The translations under genes and the position numbers were made by a program. A DNA stretch of 54,613 nt, counting the filler, from Jimgerdemannia flammicorona (taxonomy: Eukaryota), in assembly GCA_003990765.1 (NCBI GenBank). It is 3 parts of 3 records of this genome, joined end to end, with 100 filler letters (N's around TTAATTAATTAA, not from the genome) between each part and the next. Parts side by side here need not be neighbours in the genome. Positions count along the whole stretch, not along the records: positions 18,240 to 36,377 come from RBNJ01002291.1; 2 more parts are not named here. One strand, given 5' to 3'. Every line of letters starts with the position of its first letter. Position 1 is the stretch's first letter. Below the pieces are notes generated by a model. That model saw only the letters and a list, made by a program, of their open reading frames with translations. It searched no databases and had not been told where the DNA came from. This document shows, piece by piece, positions 18,140-46,700 of the stretch.

Positions 18140-18239
18140 NNNNNNNNNNNNNNNNNNNNNNNNNNNNNNNNNNNNNNNNNNNNTTAATTAATTAANNNNN
18201 NNNNNNNNNNNNNNNNNNNNNNNNNNNNNNNNNNNNNNN
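18140..18239. other. Assembly gap with artificial six-frame-stop linker
   Basis: N44-TTAATTAATTAA-N44, identical to the second gap. Confidence 0.97.
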
Positions 18240-21200: not shown

Positions 21201-24040
21201 CCCTCTCCTTCTTCCTCTTGAGTAAGGCCACATTGAGGTGCTAGTGCCCTCCACCACCACTCGCTGCTTGAAATCTACCACAAACCTCCACTCCCCAGTG
21301 ATCAGACCAAGGGCACCAGTGCACCTCCGCAGTGTCCAGTACATTGCCCCAGCACTCCGCCACCAGTACCCAATCTATTCGCATCCCAACCAATATTGTT
21401 CCAACTGGATGCCACTGGGTGAAAGGTCCCAACTTATCCCCCTGTCATTGGCGAACTCCATCTACCAAACCCATGTCGTGCTCCACCTGAAGCCACTGAG
21501 AAAGTCCAGAGGATACCACAACCCCTGCTCCACCATCAGATCTATCTAGTGCACGATCACGTACTATGTTAAAGTCCTCCCCCAGAATGTCTAAAGCAAC
21601 TACCTCCTGACCATCCCATGCCAGCCATCTCTCAACCCATTGCTTTTGCTCTCTGCCAACCGCAGGGAGGTAAACTGAGCCAATTGTCAAACCATCACCA
21701 GCCCCACCTTTTAGTCTTCCCCAAATCAGTCTGTCACCATAGGCCTCTACCTCCACTAGCTCACCTTTGCCCACACCAACCAAGACACCCACCTGCTTAT
21801 TCCAACCTGCTCCACCATACCATTCTTTACTCCACATCTCAAAGTCTGACTTGCCATAAGCCTGGATATCCTGCAGAAACACAACATCATATCTCCTGAC
21901 TTTAAGCCATCTGAAAAGCCGCTGCCTTTTAACACTATCCCACAATCCATTGACATTGATCGACAAAATATGTAGGTTGTTAATCATCATTAAGGAAATT
22001 GTTTAAAGCTCAGCAGGGACTGCCACCACTTTCTCAGCCCTTCCTCTAACAATCTCTCACTGGTCCTCACAAATTGCCCTCCAGATTCGATCACCATTAG
22101 CACTGCTGCAGAAAAGGTCCACTCTCTCTGTCACCACCTTCTTGATATCGGCCATCCTGCACTCGTCAACATCATATCCTTCATCGTCCAGCAGGGTGGC
22201 TACCATTGCCATCACCAGCTTAGGCCCCTGCATCACTACATTGAGGAATCCTTCCCATGCCTCCTGAGATCCATGAAACACATCCACTTTCTTGATGTCT
22301 TCCTCCGCCAGCTCCTCAAGAACTGCCTGATACCAGCTCTCTGCCGTCATCACCAGGGGCCTGGGAGTTAATGGCCTAGGGGTCCTGCTCAGCTCCTGCA
22401 GTTGCTCTCTGTCTGCCGACACATCCGAAGCCACATCCACTAGCTCATCCTCCTCGGCAACTTTCTCCAAGCAAATAACCTCACCAGCTTCTGGGCACTC
22501 CCAATGGACATTCGCTGCCCCCGCCATATGAATATCCTCCACCTGAGTCTCCAGCACTACTTCATCATCAACCTCAAAGCCTCCTTCACCAACCTCCTCC
22601 TTATCTGCCCACTTTCCCCTCACCGGCGCATGTGCCGAGTTCTCAACACCACCCAGCTGGGAGAAGGACACCTCCGCCACCTCCACGCCTTCCATCTGAT
22701 TCTTGGCTACCTCTACCTTTGCCTCTTCTTCCATAGCTGCCCCTCGAAGGGCCACCTGCAGACGTTCCCAGTTCCCTTTCCTCTACTGCTTCCTCTTGCC
22801 ATCAGCCTCGATCCAGACCCAATCCTTGGCATACTCCTCTTACTTCCTCTTTTGCAGCTCCTTGGCAGCCTCTCTCTCCTCTAGAGCAATTGCCAACTCT
22901 TCCTCCTCCTGTTCGGCTCCCTTTCTCCTCCAGACCTTGCACTCCTGCCCCCCAATTCTAATCCCCTCAGGCCAATTGCGGCCCAGCCCAGTAGCCTCCT
23001 TGCCTTCCAGTCACAGCATCACCTCACAGTTGCCATTCCTCAGTTTGGTGCCCTCCCAGAACATGAACCCGAAGTCCACCATCTCACCATATCCACCTAG
23101 TGCCTCCACTACCATCTCCTTGGTCTCCTGTCTGCCCAGGGTTGGCAAACCTTCCACCACCAGCCGAACAGCACATGGATCCCACCTCAGACACCTCGCC
23201 ATCCCAATCCGGATACCCTTGACCATCATCCCTTTCTCCAGCGTCTTCACCATCGCATCCTCCTCCACAAATACAATCTCCACAGCCTCTGCCAACAGGA
23301 TGAACTTCAGGGATTCTGCCCCAGCTACTTCCTCTCCCACCAACCTCAGAACCTCCCTCGCTGACATTGCCAATCCCAGGAAGTTCGCCGAGACTGCCCA
23401 CATCGACACTGATTTGTGGAAGAAGGGCCTCACCACCAACTCGCCTGTCCCTGCTGCCAGAGTCACCTTCCCTTTGGCCCCTGAAATACCTGTAGTTGTC
23501 CCACCCAGCCCAGCTGCGCCACCAGCAGTCCTCTCCCCAGCCACCTGCCCAGCCACAAAAGAACCAGTCTCCGGCATCCCACCACCAGACCCCTGTCCCC
23601 TGCCGGCCACCTGACCCACCACCTGACTCGTCACCTGACCCCTCCCCCTGTCAACACTATGCCCCCCCTGTCCAACCCCCATAGGCCTAACAGCAGCCCT
23701 CCTATTCCCAACTACCGTATACCAGGCCTCGGTCCCACCAGCCCTCCCCTATCCACCAGCCCTCCCTGCAGCCACACCAGCCCCAGCAGCCACCGCAAAG
23801 CTCTTGGGAATACCCAGACCAGACCTCCTCCTCTCTAGATGCTCAGAGCTAGAGGAATCTTGACTAGCCATGTTACCAAAACTTGTCCAATTTTCTTGAA
23901 ACTTGTTATGCCTTGTATGTAGACTCCTGCCGCACGATGTACACCAGTATGCTCGAAATAAAAACTGGAAAACGTATTGTCTTTCACTAAAAGATGTCTG
24001 TGTGGCTTAGCTCTCTCCGAATGGTTTGAGCAAAAGAAGT
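18240..24040 (-). mobile_element. LINE-A: full-length degenerate L1/Tx1-like non-LTR retrotransposon
   Basis: Poly(A) tail (T-run 18240-18262). ORF2 from 21990: APE (SINVNGL, WSDH), RT (SPGEDGLPWEFW, QEKAYDRV, QGDPLSPLLY, FADN) and C-terminal CxxC. ORF1 from 23871 to ~22057. 5' UTR is homologous to LINE-B. Confidence 0.93.
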
Positions 24041-27000
24041 CCCCCAATACCACCATACCCTGTCATAGGCCTTCTCTTGATTCAAAAAGACCATCCTCCC
24101 ATTGATCTGCCTACTCCTACAGCCTTCCAAAACATTTTGCACCCAGGCAGTACTGTCCCTAATCTGCTGGCCCTTCACAAAGCCCCTCTGCTCCTCCCCT
24201 ACCAGTCTTCCAATCCACTGCTGCAATCTCCCCACTAAGATTTTTGAGACTAGCTTCCTGTCTACATTTAGCAGCATGACCGGCTGCCAGTTGCGCCACT
24301 CCCTCCTGTCACCTTTCTCCTTATACAGCAAAGACACCAGACCTAAACTTCTATTCCCAATCCACCATCCTTCTTCCAGTACAAAATTAACCATTTCAAC
24401 AAGCCAAGCTCCAAATTCCACCTGAAACTCCTTCCAAAATTCCCAAGAGAGACCATCCTCTCCTGGTGAAGAACTACTCGGCGCCTTCTGCAGAGCCTCC
24501 AACACCTCCTCCAAAGACACTCTACCAAATACTGAAGCTCCAATCTCCAGTAGTGACACCACTGGCCAGTTATGTACTAGAGGTGCCTCTGTAACATCCC
24601 CTACCCCAATACCCCCACCCATATCATCATCACTCCAAAGAGTCTGCCATTGTCCTGAGATCACCTCCAACATATCCGCTACACTGGTAACCTCAACACC
24701 ATCTTCTCGCAAAACTGAAGACCAGCTTTGTCGAACATTTCTTGCCTTCAAGACACCAGATAAGTACTTAGTTGGTCTTTCACCCTCTTCCAGTTGTCTA
24801 GCCCTTAGGCAGGCCAGGAGCCCATCCACAACTCTATTCTCAGTCTCTCTCAAGGTTGCCTGTAGGTCGACTACCTCTCTAGCGAGTTGACCCTTCCTCT
24901 CTTCTGCTAGTAAAACATCCTCCAATAGCTTCAGCTGCCACCGCAAACCCCTTTCAACTCTCCTTTCCTTATCCTTTTGCTTCTTTCCTGCCACTTCCCC
25001 AGTGTCTCTCCAATATGCACTAGCAAGGTGTTTGAATCTACCCCACCAATCTGCAATAGATAGACCACCTGCCACCCATCACTCTACTTCCTGTCAGGCC
25101 ACATATATGAATTGCTCTCATTCTGCTGGACACCAGAGCAGAGCCACATTGAGACACCAGTGCCCGCCTCCCCCATTAATAGCCTGGAATCTCCCACTCA
25201 CCTCCACTCCCCAATGGTCTGACCATAGGCACCACCATACTCCGACTATATCAAAAACATTACCCCAATGTTCAGCTACCAATACCCAGTCAATCTGCAT
25301 ACCAACCATCCCATTGTCTATAGAATGCCACCTAGTAAAGGGGCCTAACCCATCTCCTGCCCTCAATCATACCCCATCTACCAATCCCATGCCCTTCTCT
25401 ACCTGAAGCCACTGAGACAGCCCTGGAGAGACCGCTACCCCAGCCCCACCATCAGACCGATCCAGTGCACAGTCCCTAACCATGTTAAAGTCACCCTCCA
25501 AAATGTCCCACCCAATCCTCCCAAGTCAACCACTCCTCTACCCATTGCTTACGCTCTCTGCCAACTGCTGGCAGATATACAGAGCCCACCAAAAGTCCAT
25601 CTCCTTTCCCTCTCTTCAGCCTTCCCCACACCAGTTGATCACTGAAACATTCTATATCAACTAACTTCCCCTTCCCAACTCTAACCAGAATACCAACTTG
25701 CTTACTCCAACCCGTGTTCCCAAACCATTCCTGACTCCACAACTCATAGTCCTCCTCCCCATAGGCCCAAATATCTTGAAGAAATACCACATCATACCTC
25801 CGGACCTTCAACCATCGAAAGAGATGCCACTGCTTCACACTATCTCGCAAACCATTGATATTGATAGACATAATACGTAGGTCATACTTTATCATGAAAA
25901 ATATGGAGTTTAAATATCAGCTGCCACTACCACCACCTTCTCAGCTCAGCCCTTAATGATGTCTTGACACTCCTCACAGACTGCTCACCAAATTCTTTTG
26001 CCATTGACACTGCCACAGAAGAGGTCCACTTGCTCGTATGCCACCTTATAGATATCTGCCATTCGGTCATCATCCACCTTGTACCCTTTATCCTCCAGCA
26101 GGGCTGCAACCATTGCAGTTACCAGCTTCAGTCCCTGCAATGCCACCTTGAGAAATCCTTCCCACGCCTCTGGAGAAGCCTGAAACACATCCACTTCCTT
26201 AATGTCATCCTCTGCCAGTTCCTCCAGAACCACCTGGAACCAACCATCTGCCACTATTGCCATCAGCCCTGGAGTCACAGGCCTGGAAGTCCGGCAAAGC
26301 TCCTGAAGCAGCTCTCTGTCCACAGAAACATCTGAAATGACATCCACCAGCTCATCCTCTTCAGAGACCTTATCCAACCTCACCACCTCCCCTGCTTCTG
26401 GACATTCCCAGTGTACATTCGCTGACCTAGCCATCACTGTGTCTTCCATTGGAGTTTCGGGAACCACCTCTACATTTTCTTCAAAGCCTTCTCCTTGCTC
26501 TTCTTACCATCTGCCCACTTCCCTGTCACAGATGCATGTGCAGATTCCTCCACTCCCCCCAACTGTGAGAAGGACACCTCCGCCACCTCCACCCCTTCCA
26601 TTCGATTCCTGTCAGATACTACCCTTTCAACCTCCTCCTCCTCAGATACTTGCAGCACTGCCTGCAGCCACTCCTAGTTTGCCCTATGCCAATGCTTCCT
26701 CTTGCCCTCTGTTTCAATCCAGATCCAATCCTTAGCAAAGTCCTCCCATTTCCTTTTCCACAAAGCCTTTGCCTCATCATACTCCTTGAGGGCTATCAGC
26801 AGCTCCTCCTCTTCCTGCTCAGAGCCTTTCCTCCTCCAGACCCGGCAATCCTGCTCCCCAACATAAATGACCTCTGGCCAGTCTCGCCCCAGGCCTGTTG
26901 CCTCCTTTCTCTCCAGCTGCACCATTGCCTCACAGTTACCATTCCTCAACTTTGTGCCCTCCCAAAACATAAATCCGAAATCCACTATCTCGCCAAAGCC

Positions 27001-27945
27001 TTCCAGAGCCTTGGCGATCACCATCTTAGTCTCCTGCCTGCTCAGCATCAGCAGTCCTTCTACCACCAACCTCACTGCATGTGGGTCCCATCTCAAGCAC
27101 CTCGCCATCCCCACCTTAACATTCTTAACCATCAATCCCTTCTTCAAGGCCTTCACTATAGCCTCCTCCTCAACGAATCTGACCTCCACTGCCTCTGCCG
27201 AGGGGATAAACCTCAGTGACTCAGCCCCCACAACCTCCTCACCCACCAGTCATAGAACTTCCTTGGCTGATAGACCAAGGCCCAAGAAGTTGGCAGAGAC
27301 TGCCCACGATGACACTGACTTATGGAAAAATGGTTGTACCACCAGCTTCCTAGTTTCTGCTGCCAGGGTTGCCTTGTTCTTGCTACTAGATATGCCAGCT
27401 ACTATCTCGCTAGAAGCTACTGCACCACCAGCAGTCCCACCTCCAGCCACCAGCCCAGCCCCAGGAAAGCCAGTCCCAGCCATTACACCCCTAGACCCCT
27501 GACCCCTGCTGGGCCCCTGGCCAGTCAGCTGACCAGTCACCTGATGTCCACCCCTGTCAACACTATGCCCCTGCTGCCCCCCAACTGTAGGCCTAGCGGC
27601 TGCCTGCTTACTCCCCACCACCATGTGCCAACCACCCAATCCTGCCACTGATCCATGACCCCCTGTTTGCCCTCCAGCCCCACCTTGACCAGCTGCCACC
27701 GCAAAACTCTTGGGGAGGCCCAGGCCAGGCCTCCTCCTCTCTAGGCGCTCTGAGCTTGATGAGTCTTGGGTCACCATACCACGGAAACTTGACAGATTTT
27801 GATGAAACTTGCTGTGAATTGTTGCCAGACTTCTGCCGCACCTTGCACACCAGTATGAACGAAGTGAAAACTTGAAAACATGTTGCTTTTCGCAAAAGGT
27901 TGCCTGTGTGGCTTAGCTTGCTCTGAATGGTTTTGTAAAGCAGCA
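24041..27945 (-). mobile_element. LINE-B: same family, interrupted in RT by LINE-A
   Basis: ORF1 from 27777, ORF2 from 25895 (SININGL, WSDH, SPGEDGL, QEKAYDRVWW), ending at the LINE-A 5' end. Confidence 0.92.
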
Positions 27946-28392: not shown

Positions 28393-30339
28393 ACTTGGTA
28401 GCAGCGGTTTACCAGCCAAGAAGGCACCAAAGAACACACTCCTGAAGTTGGAACAAGACCAACCTTAGACAGGAGTAATCCCCAGAACCGACTGTGGATC
28501 CTCAAACCAGAGCCAGAGAAGCCCTTGCCATTAGGACCAGGTGGTACCAGGAAACCACAGACACAGAGACCCATCAGCTTGTAATTGACCAGGCTTACAA
28601 GGATCTATACTAGGCCTTTAGGACATACCACCCAGGACTTAGGAATATTGCTAGCTGCCGTAGGTTCTACAAACTCCTCCGAGGACACATTGAAACCACT
28701 AGGACCCCCAAATCTAGCTGTAGCCATCCAGGATTTTTTAGATTATATTACACCCCCTGCTGTAAAAGAAGCAGCTACTGAGTGGATTGCCTATGACAGA
28801 TACCATCATACTCCTACTAAGACCTCCCTCTACTATAGGCTAGTTGTATACTATGCCTCTGCCATAACTAGGTATGAGAATGAGCAAGCAGGCCACCCAT
28901 CCCCTACTGCTGAACAAGGAGTAGGCCCATCTACTCAGCCAGAGACTGATATTCTCTTTGAAGGACCTAGTAAGTACGAGGATGCACTATCTCATCAGAA
29001 AAGGGAGTCAGACGAAGACTCCACAGGTTACCAGTCTGACGATAGCCAATGAGGAATAGCAGGCCTAGAAATTTACCAAGAGACTACAGGTCAAGAAGAT
29101 CAGACCCCAGAACCAATCCAGCCACCTATACAGAGGTTTGGTTTACCCTCTCTCACAGGACTCTTTGACTTAATATCTGGGAACCAAGTAACCCCAAGTC
29201 ATACAGCACTATAACCCCACCAAGCAGAACAATCTTCAGGAGAATCTACCCCAACAGGCCCACCACCACTAGTCAAAACAATGGTAGATACCAACATTAC
29301 AGCACTGACCACCCAGCTAGCAGCACTAGCAGGAATAGTAGGACAAATTGCTGAATAGAACAAACCAACCAAGACCTTGTGAATTCCAACATTCAGTGGA
29401 AAAAACAGTGACATCGAAAACTTCATCAATGCAGTTAACATAGGTTACTGAGCAAACCAATGGAATGACAACTGAGTACCTATAGGAATACTCACCAACA
29501 ACCAGAACAGCACCCTTCAACAGCTGTTTGCCACATCAGCAGCACAAGTAGAAACAGTAGCCATATTCTTCACTAGAACAGCAGCTGAATTCTGGCAAAT
29601 CTTGGAACAACACCCAGTAACCTGGGAAGCCCGCCCTCAAGTCAATGGACAAGTACCTGGCAACAATAGACTAGGTTGGGATGACTACGAAGCAGACCCA
29701 GGACTCAAGGCCTTGCTACTGACCAAATTCCAAAATGCAGCCTACATATAAGAAACTTGGAACAAACTGTCCCAGATGAAGTTCCACAAGAATGGCGAAG
29801 AAGATCTAGAGACCTTTGCCACCAGAATGGATGCCTATCTCAAAACTGTTGGACTTACCTATCAGGAGAACAATTTGGCCATCAATGGTACCAGAGCCAA
29901 CCATCTCTTTGCAGCCCTACCAGACTGACTCACCCAGAAGATCAAGGAACAAGGTCTTCCCCAAGGATGTCCCCACTACTCATGGTGCTTTGCCCAAGTA
30001 CAAAGAAGAGCCCACGAAATCCTTGCTGCACAAGCCCTACAAAATCAAGAACACAAGAAGGATAACCAAGATAGGAGAAATCCTACCAGGAGAAATGATC
30101 AAAGGAATGACCAAAAATATGATCAATGGAATGATCAAAGGAACCAGCGAAATCCCAGAGGACCTGGACCTCTCACTAAGGATGAAAAGAAGCAGCTCCA
30201 CGAAAAGGAATTGTACTTCATCTGTAAGAAGGCAGGACACATCTCAGTCAGATGCCCTAAGAAGAGAAACAGATCAGGCAAACCCAGTAACCAGAACATT
30301 ACTGTTATTGGAGAAGGTCCAGAAAAGAAAAACCCTGAG

Positions 30340-30770
30340 AATGTCATCAAAGTACAGAAGATATGGTACAAGGCTACTATCCCCACTAAGGCCCACCCAA
30401 CCGATGCTGGATATGATCTCTACAGCAGCCAAGACCTCACCATCTCACCAAGCACCAATGCTACAGTGTGAACAGGAATTGCAATGCAAGCTCCCAGAGG
30501 TACATACATCCACCTTACTGAGCGAAGCAGCCTAGCCAAAGAGTTCAACATTGGGCTAGGTGGAGGAGTAGTTGACCAAGGATTTACTGGTGAAATCTGT
30601 GTCATCTTGCGAAATTTTGGAGACACCTCATTTGAAGTCAAAACAGGCCAAAGGATTGCCCAAGCAATCATTGAAGAAATCCATCAAGATCTCACCATTG
30701 AAGAAGTCCCCAAACTCTCTCAGACAGACCGTGGCAAGAAAGGGTTTGGATCTACCAACAAACCTCCCAG
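30340..30770 (+). pseudogene. Retrotransposon dUTPase in the gag frame, upstream of protease
   Basis: All five trimeric dUTPase motifs are recognisable. One TGA (likely from CGA). Confidence 0.92.
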
Positions 30771-32591
30771 TCAAAAAGGTCACTACCACGAAGGAAGATG
30801 ATGAAAACTGGTACAAGAGAATTGCAGATGGTTATGCACCATGTGGATGATGCCCTCATTCTATTTGAATGTACTGCATGGAACATGTTAGTGAATGCCA
30901 TGCATGTCTCTCCAAAGTTTTCAAAATTCAATCCGAGAAACGCCAAGCTCAACAGACTGAGGAACCCAAACAAGACAACCCTCCTTGTGAAGGATGGGGA
31001 GAAACTGACTTTGAGGAGACTGACAGCAATTGGGACAACAATGAGGATGAAGAGCTCAATACCATCAAGAAGGAGGACAGTTACATCAAGTTCACAGGCC
31101 AAGTCTACAGACAGAATGTCAATATCTTGCTTGATAGTGGTGCTACTGGAAACTACATCAGTACCAAGACTGCCAAGAGGATTGGAGCCCAAAGCAGACC
31201 CACTACTGAGAAAAGAAGTGTTACCTTTGATGATGGAAAGACTGTATCATTGACCAAGATCTGTGAAGACCTTTTGCTCAAGATTAGCAAATATCAAGAG
31301 AAGTTGGACTTCAGCATTGTAGACCTTCCAGGACAAGACATTATCCTAGGAAAAGCCTGGTTGACCCAGCACAACCCAGACATCAACTAGAGAACCAATG
31401 AGGTTAATCTGACCCATGAAGGCAGAAAAATCACCCTGACACCCCAGGAAGGTACCAACCACCAAGAAATCGAAATCATCTCTGCCATTCAAATGAAGAG
31501 ACTCTCTCGAAAAAAGGGAAATACCTACTTCATCTGTACAGTACAAGAAGTCACTGAAGCTACAAGTAGCCCAATTCCAACAGAAGCTCAAGAACTGTTT
31601 GAAGAATTCCAAGATGTATTCCAAGATCCTCAAGAACTTCCACCCAAGTACCAAATCCAACATGGAATTGATCTTATTCCAGGATCTGAACCCCTATATA
31701 AGAGTATCTACCAACTGGCCCAACCTGAGCTCAAGACTCTCAAGGATGAATTGACCAAACTACTGGCCCAAGGATACATTGAACCCAGCCACTCTCCATT
31801 TGGAGCCCCCATTCTATTTGTCAAGAAGAAGGATGGCTCTCTGCAAATGTGTATTGATTACAGAGCCCTCAACAAGATCACTATCAAGAACCAGTATGCC
31901 TTGCCCAGGATTGATGAGTTGCTACACCAAATCTTCAAGGCCAAGACCTTTTCTCTACTGGATTTGTGAAATGGCTACCACCAGATTCTCATTGATGAGA
32001 AGGACATTGAGAAGATAGCTTTCCGAACACGGTTTGGACACTACCAGTTCTGAGTCATGCCTTTTGGATTGACCAATGCACCAGCAATATTCTAGTATCT
32101 GATGAATGATATCTTTAGACCACTCCTCAATATCTGTGTCCTTGTATATATTGATGATATATTAATCTATAGTGAGACAGTAGAGCTACACTACACCCAC
32201 CTTAGACAAGTACTGATCCTTCTGCAAGAACACCAGCTCTATGCCAAGATGAGCAAGTGTAAGTTCAATCAAGACTAGATCGAGTACTTAGGACACATCA
32301 TCTCTGCTGAAGGTATCAATGTGGACCCCTGAAAGGTATCAGCCCTTAAGAATATCCCTATCTCTACTACCCTCAAGCTACTCCAGTACTTTCTGGGTAT
32401 TGCCAGTTATTACTGAAGGTTTATCCAAGGATATTCTGCTATTGCAGCTCCATTAACCAGTCTGGCCCGCAAAGGAGTGAATATCAAAGCTGAATAGACC
32501 CCTGAATGCACCCTGGCTATAGACCATCTCAAGAGACTCCTTACTGAGATCCCAGTGCTAATTGCACCTGACCCTACCAGACCATTCACTT

Positions 32592-33414
32592 GAGGAGGAA
32601 GAAGGCCCAACGGGAGCCAAGGGAGCGAACCCAGAGCCAGTGTCAAAGCGAACGGAAGACATGTGGAAAGGTATGTATAAGGGGGACGAACAAAGAATGT
32701 AACTGAAATTGCATCAGGCGTTTATTGCCACGTAAAAATGCGGTCCTTATATACAAAATACGACATCCCAAAAGGGAGGACGTGCCACAAGTCGGGGCGA
32801 ACCGAATTAGGAACCACATGACCGCCGGAGATAAGCGGAGATAAGAGGGGAGCCAATCCCAGTTGCAGGATGAAAATCACAAACAAACACAAACAAAACA
32901 AATCCAAATCGAGATTAAAAAACATCCTTGCCCCCTCCGGGGTCTCGCGCTCGCTCCGGGGTCTCGGCCTTACTCCGCTCCCCTCCGCTGCCTTCGGTCC
33001 CTCGCTTCGCTCGAGCTCGCTGTGGCTCGCTCCGTTTCGGCCTCACCCCTTGCTCACGCTCACCCCTCCGGGGTCTGCGGATGTTTTTTAATCTTGATTT
33101 GGATTTGTTTTGTTTATGTTTGTTTGTGATTTTTATCCTGCAACTGGGATTGGCTCCCCTCTTATCTCCGCTTATCTCTGGTGGTCATGTGGTTCCTAAT
33201 TCGGTTCGCCCCGACTTGTGGCACGTCCTCCCTTTTGGGACGTCATATTTTGTATATAAGGACCGCGTTTTTACGTGGCAATAAACGCCTGATGCAATTT
33301 CAGTTATGTTCTTTGTTCGTCCCCCTTATACATGCCTTTCCACATTTCTTCCGTTCGCTTTGACACTGGCTCTGGGTTCGCTCTCTTGGCTCCCGCTGGG
33401 CCTTCTTCCTCCTC
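32592..33414. repeat. 336-bp inverted repeat (32592-32927 / 33079-33414) with 151-bp GC-rich spacer
   Basis: Arms align without gaps, 14 mismatches by manual comparison. Confidence 0.97.
33253..33259 (+). promoter_or_regulatory. Candidate TATA box for PLE ORF1 (mirrored at 32747-32753)
   Basis: TATATAA ~75 nt upstream of the ATG at 33332. CCAAT (minus strand) and tandem CTTATC (GATA) sites lie further upstream in the arm. Confidence 0.45.
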
Positions 33415-34564
33415 TGCTGTACCGCCTGCCCTCGGGGCCTCCGTCCTTGTCAACAAGCTCATGGATGAGGTTCTTCCTCCTCCTCCTCCCCCTGCCTTCA
33501 CCCCCGCCACTGTCTCGTTCGAGACCTATATCTTGTCCGCCATCCTTTCCCTCCCCCTGGACCTTCATCCTTCTGGTCGTCCGCTCCTCTCCCAATTTCA
33601 GTCGGTTCTTGCCCTCTCTGCCAAGGAGGCTCGCCTCCGCCGTGACGTCGACGTCGTCGCTCCACCCGCCATTCGTTATTCCATTCTCCCCGAGGCCCGC
33701 TGCCAAGCTCTCTCTGAAGAGGTTCGTGCCGCCACTGCCGCCGCCAAGCTTGCTGCCGCTGATGCCGCCGCTACTTCCGCTGCCACCGCCTCTACCTCCT
33801 TCCAACGTGCCTGTGCCGCTTTCATGGCCTTCGCCTCCTCTTGCCTCTCGGATGCTGCCCCTTTCTGTTGCTTTGCCATCCATGAAGTTCCTTCTGTCGC
33901 CGCCGACATCGATGCCGTACGTCGTTTCCTCCTCGCCGGCACTTCCTTCGTTGCTCGTCTCCACGAACAAGAGTCGTCTCGCACCGCCGCTTCTGCTCGC
34001 GCTACCGCCACTGCTCCCCTTCCCGCCTCCCCTGAGGTTTCGGTCTCCGAGGCCATTCGCGCCGAGGCTCGTGCTGCTGCTCATGCTGAGGTTCGTTCCT
34101 TCACCACTGCCGCTGCCAAGGCCCCCTCCAAGACCCCCGCCAAGACCCCCGCCAAGCCCAACCAGGCTTCGTCGGCCTCTTCTCGGTCCCCCTCCCCAGC
34201 CAAGGCCTCCTCCTCCTCTGTTCCCCCTGCCCCCAAGCATGGCCGCCAACTTGGTTCTCACCCTGTCGGGGCCTGGCCTTGTGCCGTCTGCTCTGGTCAC
34301 CTCCACCATGCCTACTGGCACCCGGCCAAGTCCGTCTGCCCCCATGGTGGTGTTCCTTGCGCTGCTGCCCATTCGGCTGCTCGCTCGCCTTCCGTCTCCT
34401 CCGCCGGTTCCTCCTCCGCCTCCTCGACCCGTGTCCCTGAATGCAAGGGCTGCATGAAGGCCTGTGGCCGCAAGGTCTGGCACTCTGATGGGGTGTGCTC
34501 CCATTCGTCGGGTTCGCCACCTTCAAAAAAAGTCAGAGGGAAGGGGAAGACCTCCCGCTCTTAA
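33332..34564 (+). CDS. PLE ORF1, 410 aa: Ala-rich helical region, Cys/His-rich C-terminus, basic NLS-like tail
   Basis: Uninterrupted ORF with consistent NNC/NNT codon use. CAVCSGHLHHAYWH..CPH...C, CKGCMKACG...H...C and PPSKKVRGKGK. Confidence 0.8.
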   Translation: MPFHISSVRFDTGSGFALLAPAGPSSSSAVPPALGASVLVNKLMDEVLPPPPPPAFTPATVSFETYILSAILSLPLDLHPSGRPLLSQFQSVLALSAKEARLRRDVDVVAPPAIRYSILPEARCQALSEEVRAATAAAKLAAADAAATSAATASTSFQRACAAFMAFASSCLSDAAPFCCFAIHEVPSVAADIDAVRRFLLAGTSFVARLHEQESSRTAASARATATAPLPASPEVSVSEAIRAEARAAAHAEVRSFTTAAAKAPSKTPAKTPAKPNQASSASSRSPSPAKASSSSVPPAPKHGRQLGSHPVGAWPCAVCSGHLHHAYWHPAKSVCPHGGVPCAAAHSAARSPSVSSAGSSSASSTRVPECKGCMKACGRKVWHSDGVCSHSSGSPPSKKVRGKGKTSRS

Positions 34565-36377
34565 ACTTCCCCCTGGCCTGGTTCTCCCCCGGTGTCCCTG
34601 TCCCTTCTCGGATCCCATCGTCGCTTCTGGTGTGCCCTGAGTGGTTCCTCATGTTGTCCCCCCTTCACCTTTCCCAGTTGCTTGTCTCGAACTTTCGGGT
34701 TTATTCTTCTCTTAGAATACTTTTGTCTCCTCCTTTCTCTTCGGCTGACTGCCCTCTTTCTCCTCTTCAAGTCTTTGCCTTATCTTTGGGTCCTCGCTTT
34801 GTTTTTCCTGCGACTCCCTCACAATTCTCCTTCACCGATCCGGCTTGTCTCACACGTTTTCGTCATGCTCTTGACCTTGCCATCTTTTTCAAAGATCGTG
34901 GTGAGATGCCCTCTTGCTATTTTGTTCCTAGTGATTGGGTCCCCCCTCCCAATGTCTCTTCACACTGCGTATTCCTCGACATGGCTTGCTCATTGTCCGT
35001 TCCTGGATGCGCTCACTCTTGCTTGGTTTCGGACCGTGCCGTGCGTACCACGCTTAAATCGGTCAAGCAATTGCCTTTGCATTTGCTCACAGTCACTGAT
35101 AAGAATCAGGGTTTTGCACTTATTCCTAAGTCGCTCTACCTTGATGGCCTTTCTGCCCTCCTTCGAGCTGTGGCTTACGAGCCTAGCGCTCTTGGATTGG
35201 ATGAGGTTCTCACTCTTCTTCGGGTTTCTCTGGCTCATGCCAGATCGCTTTCAGATTCCCCATTCGCGAATCCCATTTTTAACTTCTTCCAGGACTCTTT
35301 GTCCTCTTCAGACATTTGTCTTCCGGTTTTTTATGCCCTTCCTAAAGTTCACAAGCCTATTTTGGCTTGGCGTCCTATTACGGCTGCTTATAATTCCCCC
35401 ACTACTGAGATTTCCAAGTGGTTATCCCGCTTCTTTCTCTCTTGGATGGCTCTTTTACAACACCGTCTTGGGCCTGAGTACACTATTCTTCGTGATACTC
35501 AGGAGCTCGCACTTCTCTGCTCCACCATTGTGCCTGTTCACCACTTCTCCCATTTGGCCTCTGGTGATTTCTCCTCCTTCTACACTGCTATTCGTTTTGA
35601 TGAGATTGATGATTGCCTTCATTTCTTGGGTTCCATTGTGTTTTCTTTGGACTCTCCGGTTTCGTTGGCTTCTATCATTGAGCTTACACTCCTCGTCTGC
35701 GGCTCTAATTATTTTGAGTCGGCCCTTGGCTCTTTTCACCAGACTTCTGGTATTGCCGTGGGTACGAATTGTGCCCCCACCCTTGCTAATCTTATTGGCC
35801 TGGCCCATGAACTTCGTGCGATACGTGATCCTCTTTCACCTCTTTCCATCGCGTTCCGGGCTGGGGATATCGTCTTTCGCCGATACATCGATGACTTTAT
35901 TGTCCTTGCTGTTGCTGGTATCGATATCCCTAGTGTGTTTCAGGGCGTCTACCCTCCCCATCATTCCATTACTTGGGTTTGTGGTACGACAGATATTCCC
36001 TTTTTGGACCTTTCAATTTCTCTTTCTCCCTTTCGAACAGTTGTCTATTCTCGCTTTCCGCGTTCTCAACAGTTCCCTGACTTCTTGTCCAACCATCCTC
36101 GTCACACTCTTCTTGAATGTGTTCGTGGTGAGGCTCGTCGTCTTGCACTTTGCTGCTCCCGTCGTTCTGATTGGGTGTCTGCTGTTCGGGTTCTTGGCAA
36201 CTTCGTCATCCATCATTGTGCCTACCCAATTTCTATCATTCGTGACCTGCTTGCTTCAGTTGAATGGTCTGTTGTTCGTTCTTCCCTCCTCTCTCCTCTT
36301 TACCCCCCCTCCCTTCCCTCCCTCCCCCCTTACCCTCTCCGTACCCCCTCTTCTTTCCCACCCCCAATTCTTGTTGT
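34495..36377 (+). CDS. Penelope-like reverse transcriptase, 3' partial (first ATG 34651; possibly reached by -1 frameshift)
   Basis: PLE motifs TDKNQG, FYALPKVHK...RPI, GDFSSFYTAI, QTSGIAVGTNCAPTLANL, RYIDD, PFLDLSI and thumb SNHPRH...RRL..CS...YP. No stop codon before the gap. Confidence 0.93.
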
Positions 36378-36477
36378 NNNNNNNNNNNNNNNNNNNNNNN
36401 NNNNNNNNNNNNNNNNNNNNNTTAATTAATTAANNNNNNNNNNNNNNNNNNNNNNNNNNNNNNNNNNNNNNNNNNNN
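36378..36477. other. Assembly gap with artificial six-frame-stop linker
   Basis: N44-TTAATTAATTAA-N44. Confidence 0.97.
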
Positions 36478-39400
36478 TGATAGACAGTGGTGCCTCAGGC
36501 AACTTCATCAATGAAGAAACAGCCAACAGACTCAAGGTCTTCACCTCTCCAGTACAACAAACTCAAGCAGTTGCCACAGCTGATGGAACCTCACATATTA
36601 TTAGTAAGGAAGTCTGTAATCTGTTCTTCCGAATTGGTGACTACTGAGTACATGTTACCCTCCAGATCATACCACTTCCTGACAATGAAATCATCCTTGC
36701 GACTCCCTGGTTGAAATAAGAGAACCCTATGATCAATTGGGTAAACTATTCTCTGAGTATCAAGAAAGGACACCACAACTTCAAACTGCAAGGTGAAAAG
36801 GACCCACTCAGCTCTAGTGATCCTGGACCAAAGTTCACCTACATCAACAAGCTACAGCTCAAGAAATTGGCCAAGAAATGTCCTCTCTTCACTATCTCCA
36901 TCTGCCCATCCAAAGGAGAACCTGAGAACTCTGAAGAAGACTTTTTTATAGTTGATAGCCATATCAGACCCCTACTCCAGAAATTTCGAGACATATTCCC
37001 AAAGAAACTTCTGAAAGGCCTATCTCCTAAACAAGCAGTAGACTATGCTATCAAGACTATTCCAGATGCCAAGCCAGCCTTCAAGTCAATCTACCACATG
37101 TCTTTGAGAGAAATCAATGTACTCAAGAAAGAAATTAATAAACTCCTAGAACAAGGAACCATCAGATGCAGTGCATCACCTTATGGTGCACCAGTCCTCT
37201 TTATTGTCAAGAAAGGAGGAGACCTACGAATGTGTATTGATTACTGAGACCTCAATGAACAGACCATCACAAACTGTTGCCCACTATCCAGAATCGATGA
37301 AATATTCAACAAGCTTACCAACCCACAATTCATAAGCTCTTTTAATCTACAAAATAGTTACTGGCAAATTGCCATAAGAGAAGAAGACATCTACAAGACA
37401 GCCTTCTGAACTCACTATGGACATTTTGAATTCCTGGTTATGCCCTTTGGCTTAACTAATGCTCCAGCAACCTTCCAGACCCTGATGTATACTATCCTGC
37501 ACTCATACCTAGACAAATTCATTGTTGTCAATATTGACAACATTCTAGTCTTCAGCAAAACCCTGGAGGAATATCTGGATCATCTCAAACTAGTACTACT
37601 GAAACTCTGACAAAACTGTCTCTTTGCAAAACTCAGCAAATGCAAATTTCTCCTGAAAGAGATTCAATTTCTTGGATACATTATCACACCAAATGGAATC
37701 AAAGTGGACCCCAGCAAAATCTCCACAATCAAGGAATGGCCCAGACCCAAGAAGCTGAAAGACCTCCAGTCATTCCTAGGATTAGCAAACTATTACAGGC
37801 AATTTGTTGCTAACTTTGCTAAAATCGTTACTGCCCTTACCCAAATGACCAAGCACAACAAGAAAGAAGAACAGCCCTGGACAATGAAACAAGAAAAAGA
37901 CTTCAACAATCTTACAAATTGGGGACCTAAACAAGATACAGTCTTTCAAGCACTAAAAGATGCCTTGATAACCACTCCAGTACTTTAAGTGGTAAACCCT
38001 GCCCTACCATATGAAGTTACTACTGATGCCTCTGACCTAGCCCTTGGAGCAGTACTCATGCAAGAAGGACACCCTGTGGCCTATCACTCTTGAAAGTTCA
38101 ATGATGCTAAAATCAACTATACAACTCATGAGAAGGAAATGCTAGCTATTGTAGATACTCTGATCAAATGGTGATCATACCTAGAAGGAGCACACTTCAC
38201 TATATTGACTGACCACAAGTCATTAGTCAACATCAAGACACAGGCTACCCTTTCCCAAAAGCAAGCCAGATGGATGAAAGTCCTCACCAACTTTGACTAT
38301 GAAATCCAGTATCACTCTGGTAAGAAGAATATTGTTGCTGATGCAATCTCAAGACCACCAATCAAAGAAGTTATTCAAACTCTCACCCTGGTTACAAACT
38401 CTATCATAGAACAAATTATTACAGCATGTGCTGATGACAAGAAAGCTCAAGCACTCCAAGAAATCCTGAATAGTGACAATACTGACAAGTATACCTGGTA
38501 CCATCAATACCAACTCAAAGGACAATGCTATCTACTACAAGGACAGATTGTATGTTCCAAACAACTGAGACCTCTGAAGGACTATCCTATTTGAATGTTG
38601 TAATGCCCCTACAGCAGAATATTTAGAATTTGACAAATGCTATAAAGTTATCTCCCGAAACTTCTATTGGCCCCATATGGCAGATCAGCTCAAGACCTAC
38701 ATCACTTCCTGTGATGCCTGCCAACATAACAAGTCCTCAACACTAGCAAAACCTGGTCTACTCCACCCTACCCCAGTACCATTTGCTAATTGGGAACAAA
38801 TCTCTATGGACTTCATTGTACAACTACCCTGAACCAAGAATGAGAAAGATGCAATTGTTATCTTTGTAGATTATCTCAGTAAACAAGCCCACTACATACC
38901 AACTACTACTACTACAATAGCACTAGACATAGCCACACTCTTGTTTGATAACATCTCATGCTATTATGGTCTCCCTAAGATCATTGTTAGTAACTGAGAC
39001 CCAAAATTCACCAGCCATTTTTGGAAAGCCCTCCATGCAAACCTTGGAATGAAACTTGCACTATCTACAGCCTTTCACCCTGAAACTAATGACCAAACTA
39101 AAAGAATGAACCAAACTCTGAAATAAATGCTAAGGAACTATGTTTCCTGCAGATAAGATGATTGGCATGAATACCTCAACACAGTCAAGTTTGCCTATAA
39201 CAATAGCAAGCAAGCCTCTCTTGGAATGTCTCCATTCTTCACCAATACTGGACATAACCCAAACACTCCTCTGATACTTATCTGAACTACTGACGAACTC
39301 TCTACAGTTGAAGCTGTTGAAGCATTCCTGCTCTGAATGCATAATCCAAGCCAAATCACAATCAAGAATTTATCACGAGCTCAAGAACAATAGTCACAGT

Positions 39401-40292
39401 ATGTTAACCAACACTGCCGAGAAGAAACATTTGATATTGGAGAAAAGGTTCTGAGGATACTGAGTTGACAACCTCAAGCACAGACTATCTACAAAGCTGA
39501 ACAGCAAGTTTATTAGATCATTTAAAGTCATTGCACAAGTCTCTCCTACTTCCTACAAATTGGTGCTACCAGACACCATTAGGATTTATCTGGTCTTTAA
39601 AGTCTAACATCTCAAGCAATACAATGAGAATAATGACAAGCTATTCCCAAACTGGACTACTGAACCACCTGCACCTGTCATTATTAATGATCAAGAAGAA
39701 TACGAAGTTGAACAAATCCTCAACAAATGTGGCCACAAGAACCTTCCAGAGTACCTTGTTAAATGGAAAGGTTACCCAATCCATGATGCAATCTGAGAAC
39801 CCAAGACTAACCTCCGGAATGCTACTGACTTGGTTCAGGAGTATGACTCCCTGAATAACTAAAACTGAATACTCTGTACCTATCTGCACATACTATATAT
39901 TACTCTTCTGAACATTATAATTATCATAAACAAAAATCAAGAACTCAGCAAGCCAAAACAAAAAGAATACTGACTCTCTAGAAAAATAGCAAAACTTAAA
40001 GCAAGCCTATTCTCCCCATACTACTGGTGGGAAATGAGGTATAGACATTTAAGAAGATTCCTTAGAGAAAATTCTCCATTAGTGAATGATGTCAGAATCA
40101 CTTCTGGCGCATGGTATCGAACACATGACCTTTTAATATATGAATCCAACACATTAGCCAACTATACTATAAGTATGCCACTTTCTGGAAAAATGGACTT
40201 CACCAGACTTTTGACCTCCCAAATGGTGTAACAACACTAGAACAAAATTAGAAGGCCCCAATGAGAATGTTGAAAGCTAAGAAGGGGAAAGT
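36478..40292 (+). mobile_element. Ty3/gypsy chromovirus: protease, RT, RNase H, integrase, chromodomain, 3' UTR, PPT
   Basis: IDSGASGNFI, SPYGAPVLFIVKKGG, TDASD, HEKEMLAI, WEQISMDFIV, EYEVEQIL...EYLVKWKGYP (chromodomain ~39695-39855), PPT aagaaggggaaag 40279-40291. Confidence 0.95.
40101..40173 (-). pseudogene. Eroded tRNA-like sequence (A box/B box, CAT at the anticodon position)
   Basis: Minus strand: cttatagtatagttggctaatgtgttggattcatatattaaaaggtcatgtGTTCGATACCatgcgccag. tRNA-like spacing but imperfect stems. Confidence 0.45.
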
Positions 40293-42683: not shown

Positions 42684-43039
42684 GAAATTTCCTAATTGGG
42701 TATTGTCTGCAGCGATATGCCAATTCAACTAAGCTAGTCTTAGTTTCTTGAACTTCCTGAAATACAGAAAATCCTAAATATCCAGAACTAGTCCAAAAAA
42801 GGACTTTGGTTGAGACATCAACCTGATCTTGAAATCAATAAGCATAGAGGATGTTCTCTATATGAAATTGATCTTGACCTTAAGAAAATGGTCTTCCAGA
42901 ATATCCAGAACTTCCAGAAAACCCTTCTAGAACTACATAATAGTTACCTTAAAAAGCAACCCTCTTACAGGATGTCATTGGAACAATTGTCCCAGCCAGA
43001 GAGATAGTAAGGTATCTGGGCATCTTCCTTTCAGTATAT

Positions 43040-43791
43040 GGATCAGTCTTGCTACAGGTGTGGTGGGAGAGGAGGGTGACCATCTGGAGGGAGGCACTTC
43101 AAGGCTGGGGAGGCTGCCACATCTCCCTGGTGGACCAAGTAATGATCCTGAATGTATACTGGTTTCTTAAGCTATAGTATATTGTCTATCACTTGGATTT
43201 TCCAGCTAAGGTGGTGAAGAGACTGATGAAGCTGGCTAGGGATTAGATTTGGACTGGGAGGCAGTACCAGATCAGTTGAGATACCCTTTCAATGTTAGTA
43301 GTTCAAGGGGGGCTAGGACTGGTAGACTTTTCTAAGAGGCTGTATTGTCTGAGAGCTTAGTAGTTGAAGTGGGCTATGGAACTGAGAGAAGAGAGATGGG
43401 TGCTGATGATGCAGAAGGTGTGGGAGATGAGATTCTCTCCAAGATGGTTCTCAGGGAATTTGCTTTCCCTGATAGATCTGGGTGGGAGCCATTGGCTGTG
43501 GTATAAAGGCTTCTGGTGTGGGGTAGTAGATGGAGCATACCACATAGGCTTGTACTGGTGTAGCAATAAAGGAGAGAGGCTGTGGAGACCAGCTATGTGG
43601 AGATAAGACAGATGGCTCCGGGTGGGTACTCCTTTTATTAAATTTGATATTAGTGATGGAGTAGAGTGTCACAGAGGACTTGGTCAGGATCTTTGATCTA
43701 GTAGTTGGTAAGCAGTGAGGATTGTTGAGGAGTGGGATTGGGCAGGAGTCTGGGAATAGAGTGCTGAGGTGCAGAGGTAGCTTCCACCCAA
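43040..43791 (+). mobile_element. LINE-C (older copy), 3' ORF2 part, left of the LINE-D insertion
   Basis: GGLGLVDF and YKGFWCGVVDGAYHIG match LINE-A/D ORF2. The reading continues at 49672. Confidence 0.8.
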
Positions 43792-46700
43792 AACTAAGAA
43801 CGACATCTTTCTCTGATACTACTTGGGTTATACAACCTTTGAAAGGCACTCATGACATCGTTTTTGGAGCAAAGAGACTAACAATATGACAACTGATAGG
43901 CGAGCTGAGGTGTGTACTGGGCAGGGCGGCCCAAGTGCATTTGAATGGCAGCAAGTTAGGAGGGGCCCAGGCCTAGGGGGGAGCATGAGGGGGCTGCTGG
44001 CAGGTGGACGAAGAAGGGGTGGAGGTACTGGTGGAGGTCAGGGGTCTGGGAGGGCGAGCTTTGCTGAGACGGTGAAGGGGAGGCAGCAGGCATCGGGGCT
44101 GGAGGGCTGGCTGAGGAGGGGCAAGGAGAACAAGAAGGCAGTGGTGCAGGGGGGAGTGGCCCTTGGAAGGGGGGACAGTGAAGCTGGGGGAGTAGCAGCT
44201 GGAGGGAGTGTGACTGCTGATGGCAATGGGACTGCTAATCTGGAAAAAAATCCAGATGTGATGGCTGTTGGTGAGGTTGAGCAGCTGGGGCTTGGAAGAT
44301 AAGGAGATTTGGCGGATAGTGTGATGGGCCTGGCAGTGGCCCCATTACTCAAGAAATCGATCTCAGCATTCGTGGTTACACTGTGCTTCCAGGGCTTAGT
44401 GGTGACGGCGAAAATAGTACTGGGGCTTATCGCTAAGCAGGTGGCAGGAGCTGCTTCGGTGAAGTTTCTAAAGGGACTGGAGGGTGTGGAGGTAGGCTTT
44501 GAGGAGGCTGAACTGCTGAAGGAGGCACTGAAGGTTGGGTTGGTGGCTAGAGAGGTGTGTGTGCCAATGGCGAGGTGTTTGAAGTGGGATCTGTGAGTGG
44601 TCCAGCTGCTAGAGAAAGGAGTATCCACAGTGACAGCGATGGAGACAAGAAAGAGAGTGGGGAATGTTATGGTGGAGTATGGAGAGGTAGTGGATATTGG
44701 ATTCAGGATCTGGGAAGGGACCATGCTCAGGACTGGGGATGTGGATGTGAGGATTCAGCTGGCTGGAAAAAAGGCTACTGGGAAGGTGAGGGACTGGCCT
44801 TTGGTGATGGTTTGGGGAGTGATCCTGTACAAGGTGGCAAGGGTGAAAGGAAGTGAAGAAGAGGAAGAGGATTTATTGAAAGCACTGGAGGAACTGGATG
44901 GGGCTGTGGAGCAGCAAGCTAAGGCCTGGAAGACTTTTGAGGAGTCGACACACCTGGAGGTAGTGGATGGAAAGAGGATTCGAGTGGACAAGGTGCAGTG
45001 GGATAGGGCTCAGGGGTGGAAGTGACAGAAGGATCTGCTGGCTAAACTGGGGGGTGGACCACAGAAGGATGCAAGCAAGAAGATGGGTGCTGAAGGGGCC
45101 AGAGCAAACATCTGGGCTGGCAAGAGGAGTGGGAATGATGGGGTGGAGACAGGGAAGGCGAAAGAGGGGAAGTTTAGCGACCTATATGCTGATGGCACCT
45201 TGGAGGTTTGGGATGAAGTCTGGGAGAACTCCCCCACTCCTTCCCCTCTTATCAGGCGTGGCCCAGCTTCCAGGAACAAGAAAGGGGAGGACCTGACGAT
45301 GCTGGGGACCCAGCAGGTGAAATTCAGCATTCCAGAGGTAATGAATGGGGATCAAGTAGTGGTGGTCAGAGAGGAGGAACTGGTGGATGTCCCGGAGGTG
45401 TGGGATGAGGATGTGAGTGCCAGAGCTGACACCACAATGCTGGATGGAGGGAGGCCAGCAACCCCTGGTGGGAAGGAGGTGGGGAACCTACTTTGAATGT
45501 GCCAGATGATGAATAACCTGGTGGCAGAAGAGCTGGGGGAGGTGGACTTGTGTGGGATGGGTGATGAGCACTGGATGAAAATTTTGCAGGAGGAAGGAGT
45601 GGTGATGGCACTGAAGGTGGAAATTCTTACGGTGTATCTGGAGGAGGAAGGGTATGAGATGGACAAGGAGTGGGAGGCAGAGATGGCGGTTACTGCTGGG
45701 GAGAGGGCTGAGTACTGTTGGAACAAGCATCATGGGCTGCAGCTTTGGCAGGAGGCTTGCATCAAGTACAGAGAGGAGTTTGAGGAGAAGGCCGATGGGG
45801 AGATGAATGAGCTGTTGGCTGAACTGGAGGCTCAGGGGGCTGAAGAGGTGGAGGTGATGGCTGAACATGATCTGGACATGGCACAGGAGAAGATGAGCAT
45901 GGAGCAGTAGAGATCGATGGAGAACAAACTGTAGTTAACTATGAACAGTACAACCAACATTTTTTCTTTGAATGTGAATGGGCTAAGGGGCACAGTTAGA
46001 TGTAGGAACATTTTTACTTGGCTGAAGGGATTGGAGGCCAATCTCATCCTCTTGCAGGATGTCAGGTGTGAGGATGATTCTGATAGGATGGAATGGACAA
46101 GAGAATGGGGAGGCATGGCGATTTGGAACAGCAAGGTCAGGATTCTGGTTTGGAAAGGCAGAGGGGAGATAAGGGATGTGAGGAGCTGGGGGGAGTGACT
46201 GGTCTGGGGTGAGTGGATTCATGCAGGTTGGGAGCCAGTCACAGTTGGCTCCTGTTATTATCCTGCTGTGCGGGGGGAGTGTGTGGATTGGGTGAAAAGG
46301 CTCCAAGAGAGTGAGATCCTTGCTGAAGCTGGGGTGGATATGCTTGGAGGAGATTTCAATATGGTTCGGGATATATGGTTGGATAGAACTGATGGAGGAC
46401 AGGGTGCTGAGAGCAGGAGTGGGGGGCTGGTAATATGGGAGAAAGTCGAAAGGCTAGGAGTGCTGGTGGATGCTGGTAGGGAGTACTGGGGGGACAGGAG
46501 GGTATATACACATTGGGCTGGAGGCCTGGGGACAAGGATTGATTGGATTCTGATGGCCAACTGTTGGGACCGCGATGTTTGGAAGATGCTAGAGGTGGAA
46601 TGGTGTCCGTGGTCAGATCACTGGGGCCTTTTGGGACAGGGGCGTTTTGGGGGAAGTGGGGATGGGCCTGGACATTGGTGCCTAAATTCCTCCTTGATGG

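Follow-up and report, generated by a model that had tools for sequence, protein, structure and literature searches.

The stretch of DNA analysed here (the window) comprises 54,613 nt (linker letters included) from the Jimgerdemannia flammicorona assembly GCA_003990765.1 and consists of three contigs strung together by linkers, of which the contig at 18240-36377 is the relevant one. On this contig, an inverted repeat of two 336-nt arms (96% alike, with 151 nt between them) lies between a fragment of a Ty3/gypsy-type retrotransposon and open reading frames (ORFs) that include a reverse transcriptase of the type found in Penelope-like elements (PLEs). The initial annotation had interpreted the 151-nt loop of this fold-back as a cluster of C(GNA)G mini-hairpin motifs under selection for folding in single-stranded form. 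In our view the fold-back probably represents the head-to-head 5' junction of a PLE inserted into the Ty3/gypsy copy. The features on which the analysis draws are given below by their positions in the window; because of the linkers at both ends of the contig, nothing can be inferred across either point.

18140-18239, no strand: contig linker, 44 N + TTAATTAATTAA + 44 N (sequence).
28585-32590, plus strand: decayed Ty3/gypsy-type fragment, from protease to the start of reverse transcriptase/RNase H, the probable insertion target (ORFs).
32592-32927, minus strand: left arm, probable inverted copy of a pseudo-long terminal repeat (pLTR), its outer end within 1 nt of the gypsy breakpoint (inverted repeat I1).
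32928-33078, plus strand: 151-nt spacer (the 'loop'), A-poor and C-rich, with degenerate short direct repeats and eight CTNCG motifs.
32932-32945, plus strand: left copy of the 14-mer CCCCTCCGGGGTCT, with the near-palindromic core CCCCTCCGGGG, 4 nt from the left arm (direct repeat family D10).
33004-33010, minus strand: the only exact d(GCGAAGC) heptamer, close to the fold-back's midpoint at 33003 (sequence).
33063-33076, plus strand: right copy of the 14-mer CCCCTCCGGGGTCT in the same orientation, its core ending 5 nt before the right arm (direct repeat family D10).
33079-33414, plus strand: right arm, probable direct pLTR segment directly upstream of the ORF (inverted repeat I1).
33149-33153: inverted CCAAT (right arm, read from the sequence).
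33161-33178: two CTTATCTC repeats (right arm, read from the sequence).
33253-33259, plus strand: TATATAA (right arm, read from the sequence).
33280-33285, plus strand: AATAAA (right arm, read from the sequence).
33461-34564, plus strand: N-terminal ORF part, Pro/Ala-rich, no Pfam family, ATG at 33461 (translation, Pfam scan).
34489-36377, plus strand: Penelope-like reverse transcriptase ORF, in a frame other than that of the N-terminal part and without a stop up to the contig end (translation, homologues).
36378-36477, no strand: contig linker, 44 N + TTAATTAATTAA + 44 N; the 3' part of the element is not in the window (sequence).

The public sequencing runs that match the window are soil metagenomes only and share at most 0.26 of its words; contigs from four runs were aligned to the window, and X1, X2 and X5 below denote such runs. 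The Ty3/gypsy-type copy, in which a Pfam scan gave a weak RVT_1 match (ORF at 31391-31969), stops at 32590/32591. Past 32589/32590, contigs of all four runs were unlike the window and read on as gypsy RNase H (TTDASD...). Since these contigs continue the gypsy sequence past 32590, the outer end of the left arm marks the insertion boundary within 1 nt.

On the other side of the fold-back, the right arm is followed after 47 nt by the ATG at 33461. Translation of the reverse transcriptase ORF revealed the motifs LGPRFVFP, TDKNQG, LPKVHKP..RPI, GTNCAP and YIDD. The match of this ORF to RVT_1 (E=0.0054, 16.9 bits) was below the Pfam cut-off of 29.6 bits, and sequence searches of the PDB gave nothing usable (E=0.97 and 0.24). 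The nearest database protein (P0001) shares only 52% identity with the reverse transcriptase, most homologues (3221 at E<=0.001, 573 at E<=1e-10) being about 25-35% identical, and its atlas neighbours were HTH_animal/RVT_1 clusters of rotifers, cnidarians and nematodes (0.94-0.97). Among 47 long homologues scanned, 33 contained RVT_1, three of them (P0040, P0104 and P0136) together with a C-terminal GIY-YIG domain, and 14 showed no family. RVT_1 followed by a C-terminal GIY-YIG domain is the PLE architecture. No endonuclease domain was found in P0001, P0002 and P0003, the nearest of the scanned proteins. Neither did the Pfam scan detect GIY-YIG in the N-terminal ORF; the end of the contig at 36377 closely follows the thumb of the reverse transcriptase. 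The insertion inside the gypsy copy suggests that an endonuclease may have been at work. N-terminal GxKF/Y and DKG motifs are named as PLE diagnostics in PMC8557442. By eye, LGPRFVFP (with R for K) is GxKF-like and TDKNQG is DKG-like, and the counterparts in relatives are LGKKFVP/ADKEG (P0002) and VGFKFIP/TDKN (L004). From its sequence, the reverse transcriptase is predicted to belong to the PLE/TERT-related clade.

As side observations on this part of the locus, the two ORFs overlap at 34489-34564 in different frames, which is either a frameshift caused by decay or one used by the copy; no indel at 34489-34564 was among the listed differences of other copies. Within 33388-33914, one contig each in X1 and X2 matches the window only here and continues on both sides for 255 nt as GC-rich sequence unlike the window; these contigs may stem from a relative in a different organism or represent a fragment that was captured.

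The two arms differ at 14 sites. Thirteen of these differences are transitions, many of them CpG/TpG, as is the case in aged real copies. The stop codons that interrupt the frame of the gypsy copy within 32300-32590 likewise seem to stem from transitions (CGA to TGA, TGG to TAG); together with the transitions between the arms they suggest a deamination-type decay of repeats in the host. The motifs TATATAA, AATAAA and CCAAT of the right arm are named after consensus sequences and are putative. In each arm a small G+C-rich hairpin, GGCTCCCGCTGGGCC, was observed 12 nt from the outer (3') end (33388-33402 and, as its mirror, 32604-32618), close to the start of reverse transcription expected under a PLE model. 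A long inverted repeat with a short spacer would also be in line with arms that are the inverted terminal repeats of a DIRS-like element or of a fold-back DNA transposon unrelated to the ORF. However, the right arm runs unbroken into an ORF with a reverse transcriptase of the PLE type and not of the DIRS/gypsy type, an X5 contig bridges the arm to the body of the element (33358-33529), and no ORF for a tyrosine recombinase or transposase was found, which makes such an origin extremely improbable.

The spacer between the arms has an unusual composition. Its plus strand contains 5 A, 70 C, 38 G and 38 T (fractions of.03,.46,.25 and.25), and the sense strand of the element downstream at 33415-34600 has fractions of A.11, C.42, G.22 and T.25. 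As the composition of the spacer matches that of the downstream sense strand, its strand asymmetry is that of the direct copy. CTNCG occurs eight times in the spacer, at 32935, 32954, 32973, 32983, 32992, 33005, 33030 and 33066 (six CTCCG and two CTTCG), and a ninth CTNCG (CTGCG) spans the boundary to the right arm. Besides nine GCTC, the spacer has three copies of CTCCGGGGTCT (32935, 32954 and 33066). Read on the minus strand, the motifs include GCGAAGC at 33004-33010, CCGAAGG at 32991-32997, CCCCGGAGGGG twice (32932 and 33063) and ACCCCGGAGGGGT once (33062). In all of its literal counts, i.e. the five A, the eight CTNCG positions, the GCTC and CTCCGGGGTCT repeats and the minus-strand motifs, the initial annotation was correct. 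The spacer is the sole place in the 54.6-kb window with at least six CTNCG per 151 nt, and also the sole place with at most six of any single base per 151 nt.

Much of the spacer is built from short repeats. A 19-nt unit is present in 2.3 copies at 32935-32977, CCCCTCCG occurs three times and TCGCTCCG twice, and the 14-mer CCCCTCCGGGGTCT stands at each end of the spacer; six of the eight CTNCG are CTCCG within such repeated units. The two CCCCTCCGGGG near-palindromes can form a stem of 4-5 bp with a triloop, each 4-5 nt from an arm, and the right 14-mer with its flanks reads ACCCCTCCGGGGT (5-bp stem, 3-nt loop). An open frame across the spacer (32919-33284) gave no Pfam family and is open simply owing to the scarcity of A on this strand. 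We also weighed an identity as telomere-like repeats or G-quadruplexes and rejected it, the G runs being 18-48 nt apart, as we did for the PLE 'tail', which is described as 30-40 bp long and located at the outer ends of the element, not in its centre.

We compared the motif counts with 5000 dinucleotide-preserving shuffles of the spacer. The eight CTNCG contrast with 2.74 +/- 1.47 expected (P=0.0024), an enrichment of a motif that was picked post hoc from the sequence and whose occurrences in repeated units are not independent. Split by type, CTCCG accounts for six against 1.41 expected (P=0.0008) and CTTCG for two against 0.74 expected (P=0.16). The reported lack of CGNAG on the plus strand is true but trivial: with only five A, 0.12 occurrences are expected, and the absence is uninformative. 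A second stem pair is present in four of the eight motifs on the minus strand (GCGAAGC, CCGAAGG and twice CCGGAGG; 0.98 expected, P=0.016), two of these four belonging to one repeated 14-mer, and the other four have a single closing pair. Triloop hairpins with any loop sequence were not enriched (8 versus 9.39 expected).

Both strands of the spacer were folded as DNA and as RNA and compared with 200 shuffles per strand and molecule. The minimum free energies (MFE) were as follows.

Plus strand, DNA: MFE -19.1 kcal/mol, z +1.00, 169 of 200 shuffles at least as good.
Minus strand, DNA: MFE -24.0 kcal/mol, z +0.32, 117 of 200 shuffles at least as good.
Plus strand, RNA: MFE -48.2 kcal/mol, z 0.03, 102 of 200 shuffles at least as good.
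Minus strand, RNA: MFE -63.0 kcal/mol (shuffles -52.06 +/- 3.45), z -3.17, 1 of 200 shuffles as good.

As DNA, neither strand folds better than its shuffles, a negative result that is not final since the nearest-neighbour model may omit the bonus for GNA triloops. A loop selected to fold as mini-hairpins of cDNA polarity, which would cap, prime or resolve a replication intermediate, is on these data distinctly unlikely. Such a role would draw on the motif enrichment and the four better-stemmed GNA triloops, on the exact GCGAAGC near the centre of symmetry and on a motif density and an A-depletion that are each unique in the window; the stability of these hairpins is documented (PMC13037366, PMC3201870), and self-priming by junction palindromes is a published PLE hypothesis (PMC3846280). 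Set against this are the DNA folds, the single closing pair of half of the motifs, the location of the enrichment in repeated units, the unremarkable number of triloops overall and the loci of distant relatives described below. A selected array of eight DNA mini-hairpins is thus not supported; base composition and short repeats can account for the conspicuous clustering of the motif. No setting of a single-stranded DNA replicon end or origin beside a Rep or nickase gene was found either: the neighbouring ORFs are reverse transcriptases, and the spacer is located between two repeat copies of one retrotransposon within another. What stands of the retroelement context proposed initially is that the fold-back belongs to a retroelement and that the minus strand has first-strand cDNA polarity with respect to the right-hand (direct) copy.

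The only one of the four folds that exceeded its shuffles was the minus-strand RNA. In this fold the ends of the spacer are paired (32930-32969 with 33039-33078) by 26 base pairs, 25 of them Watson-Crick and one G-U. It could be taken to mean that the spacer is a structured RNA of the minus strand, a long imperfect hairpin that extends the stem of the fold-back and acts in an antisense-template step of PLE replication, and an antisense template has been argued for in PMC3846280. Yet the plus-strand RNA, in which the same Watson-Crick pairs are available, has a z of 0.03, so the extra energy of the minus strand comes from purine-rich internal loops and not from more pairs, and the end-to-end pairing is an automatic consequence of having a near-palindromic unit directly repeated. 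None of the six matching sequencing runs listed is an RNA run. We regard an RNA function of this kind as very improbable.

Contigs from the metagenome runs indicate that the spacer is present in several versions. Spacer position 32998 is covered by four contigs in X1, all differing from the window, and an X2 contig spans 32913-33069 with 21 differences in 157; with several variants covering it, the spacer is not unique filler. The summed contig depth of the spacer (43-46) equals that of the arms, and single body contigs have a depth of 11-13.5 (about 3-4 times lower). Summed contig depth is no measure of copy number and gives a weak hint only, namely of a 3'-terminal repeat in copies that are often 5'-truncated. 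Exact-pattern scans with the arm sequence gave no matches in metagenome contigs and none in viral contigs; five matches of the arm to genome contigs (bacterial metagenome-assembled genomes) were discarded, as they share 20-23 nt only, which is at chance level. A protein-guided scan of metagenome contigs returned seven distant relatives only (25-50% identity over the matched segment). None of the seven loci has a comparable cluster, the maximum being four CTNCG or three CGNAG per 151 nt; on the conservation of the spacer itself these distant loci say nothing. Four of them (L001-L004) have no inverted repeat of at least 30 nt. Two of these four have tandem-like identical ends, i.e. direct repeats that are 100% identical at the contig ends: 1-238 and 3241-3478 in L001 (repeat unit 3240 nt), and 1-123 and 4677-4799 in L002 (repeat unit 4676 nt). 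Such ends are characteristic of tandem arrays, which collapse in assembly, or of molecules assembled as circles. The ORFs of L001 and L002 showed no GIY-YIG domain.

We propose that the fold-back arose during integration of the PLE. In PMC11167929, both strands of the target are cleaved and extended by a PLE protein, which initiates reverse transcription close to where pLTR and ORF meet. By analogy, the enzyme of the present element would have nicked both strands of the gypsy target and reverse-transcribed from both, and two cDNAs growing toward each other would have been joined in the middle. The left arm would then be a short inverted pLTR copy whose 3' end abuts the target, and the right arm a direct pLTR with the promoter, continuing into the ORF. 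The 'loop' would be the stretch by which the direct copy extends further 5' than the inverted one, i.e. sense-orientation element sequence made of degenerate C-rich short repeats. Such an origin of the spacer would account for the A-poverty of the plus strand, for the CTCCG and GCTC repeats and for the presence of the spacer in several copies. We put the chance at about even that the spacer represents the 5' portion of the direct pLTR, missing from the shorter inverted copy.

Within this proposed course of integration, the two CCCCTCCGGGG near-palindromes may have helped strands to pair or prime at the junction, and the other CTNCG motifs would be by-products of the repeat unit. In a more specific version, same-sense cDNAs from both nicked strands can pair only at palindromes, the near-palindromic 14-mer beside each arm, folding as a GNA-type mini-hairpin on the cDNA strand, would be the site of strand pairing or self-priming at the head-to-head junction, and the 131 nt between its two copies would be left as an asymmetric loop; we regard this as unlikely. 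The priming role suggested in the initial annotation is retained as a possibility for the two near-palindromes beside the arms and not for an array of eight hairpins.

Several observations weigh against a head-to-head PLE junction. A comparison of the spacer with 3 kb of the element body gave no detectable similarity (score 23 versus a shuffle mean of 26.8). No hammerhead ribozyme was detected: no Rfam family reached the gathering score in the window, there was no Rfam match at E<=10 within 32400-33600 save a chance snoRNA match, and a pattern search found the CTGANGA core absent between 32106 and 33713. Canonical PLE clades have a hammerhead ribozyme. With the contig ending at 36377, a downstream pLTR, an endonuclease domain and a target-site duplication would lie beyond the window. 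Alternatively, the arm may end where it does through simple 5' truncation of a unit whose internal inverted repeat is longer. Furthermore, the repeats of the spacer explain the CTNCG enrichment and the minus-strand RNA fold each only partly. A diverged X2 contig apparently shares the junction of left arm and spacer (over 15 nt), and if this is real it suggests a junction that is recurring or inherited and not the accident of two truncation points. Finally, none of the listed contigs extends by at least 31 nt across the arm/spacer junctions or the gypsy/arm junction, the best reaching 15 nt and 9 nt, and lacking a bridging contig the fold-back is without independent confirmation outside this metagenome-type assembly.

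The last point bears on another explanation, according to which arms and spacer come from different copies of a repeat family and were misjoined in an assembly chimera, so that there is no real fold-back. The window does consist of linker-joined contigs with matches in soil metagenomes only, and tandem and inverted PLE structures are known to trouble assemblies (PMC8557442). Against a misjoin, the 14 differences between the arms mean that they were assembled from different reads, contigs of other runs do reach 15 nt and 9 nt across two junctions, and the layout is exactly that of finished PLE copies (PMC3846280). We see little chance of a chimera and retain the head-to-head PLE junction as the likely explanation. 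Should the junction recur in diverged copies, as the 15 nt shared with X2 hint, its formation would be programmed into PLE integration and no accident, perhaps in a clade in whose nearest relatives no endonuclease domain is seen.

With regard to the wider setting, blocks of extreme GC skew at about 50% GC were observed at 18240-27500 and 43000-47000 (about -0.43 and +0.4 to +0.5, respectively). They contain few long ORFs and are flanked by AT-rich blocks of 21-35% GC. A second reverse transcriptase is encoded on the minus strand at 23987-25078 (RVT_1, E=4.6e-8). On the next contig, 36478-40000 holds a second Ty3/gypsy-type copy (RT_RNaseH, E=3e-8 at 38175-38594), which does not continue the interrupted one. 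Taken as a whole, the window has the appearance of an AT-rich eukaryotic genome with a nest of strand-biased retroelements.

The arrangement was compared with four known systems. In LINE-1 twin priming both target strands prime and two cDNAs are joined mid-way, which yields an inverted 5' segment. There a different part of the element is inverted and no repeat results, whereas in the present case one terminal segment occurs in both orientations, as PLEs typically show. The spacer resembles d(GCGNAGC) DNA in containing one exact GCGAAGC and three further C(GNA)G triloops with stems of at least 2 bp on the minus strand. It differs from the DNA of that type described in PMC13037366 and PMC3201870 in that half of its eight motifs are without a second stem pair, in that no sign of folding or of selection was found, and in its location at an internal retrotransposon junction and not at the end or origin of a single-stranded DNA genome.

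The Naiad and Chlamys elements and the canonical endonuclease-bearing (EN+) PLEs covered in PMC8557442 share more with the present element. In these elements, partial tandem copies form pLTRs, of which only the upstream repeat and the inverted copy lie within our contig, and an inverted 5'-truncated copy stands beside the upstream pLTR, as is found here. The DKG-like and GxKF-like motifs read by eye in the reverse transcriptase ORF are possible counterparts of those named for PLEs. Naiads, as well as Chlamys elements except for two basal subclades, are without canonical hammerheads, in agreement with the lack of one here. Tandem repeats lengthen some families, which may be compared with the repeat-built spacer. 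As a difference, no N-terminal GIY-YIG domain or CxC motif was seen in the ORF.

Penelope copies of Adineta vaga also offer a close parallel (PMC3846280): their ORF stands between pLTRs, and a further pLTR, inverted and of somewhat lesser length, adjoins. The differences concern the junction itself and the enzyme. In Pen2a_Av the pLTRs overlap by 15 bp, in contrast to the 336-nt arms found here with a non-palindromic, A-poor spacer of 151 nt between them; the palindromes measure 11-13 nt here versus 18-38 bp in A. vaga; and, unlike in A. vaga, no hammerhead was found, and the reverse transcriptases are only distantly related. The element is probably a further PLE in its published layout and adds an example, no new principle. 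PLE integration is poorly understood, and the origin of the tandem and inverted repeats is treated as an open question in PMC8557442 and PMC3846280, so that a head-to-head junction with a palindrome-bounded spacer offers one more test case for the ideas of self-priming and two-strand priming. In A. vaga, where head-to-head is the commonest form, palindromes at the inverted junctions were read by the authors as signs of self-priming, and the antisense template was argued for as an explanation of the head-to-head junctions (PMC3846280). The present element shares with Pen2a_Av the head-to-head order of inverted and direct pLTR before the ORF, an inverted copy that would be the shorter of the two, a putative TATA box within the pLTR, as a result of which promoters would face outwards from both arms, and palindromes at the 5' end of the pLTR and at the inverted junction.

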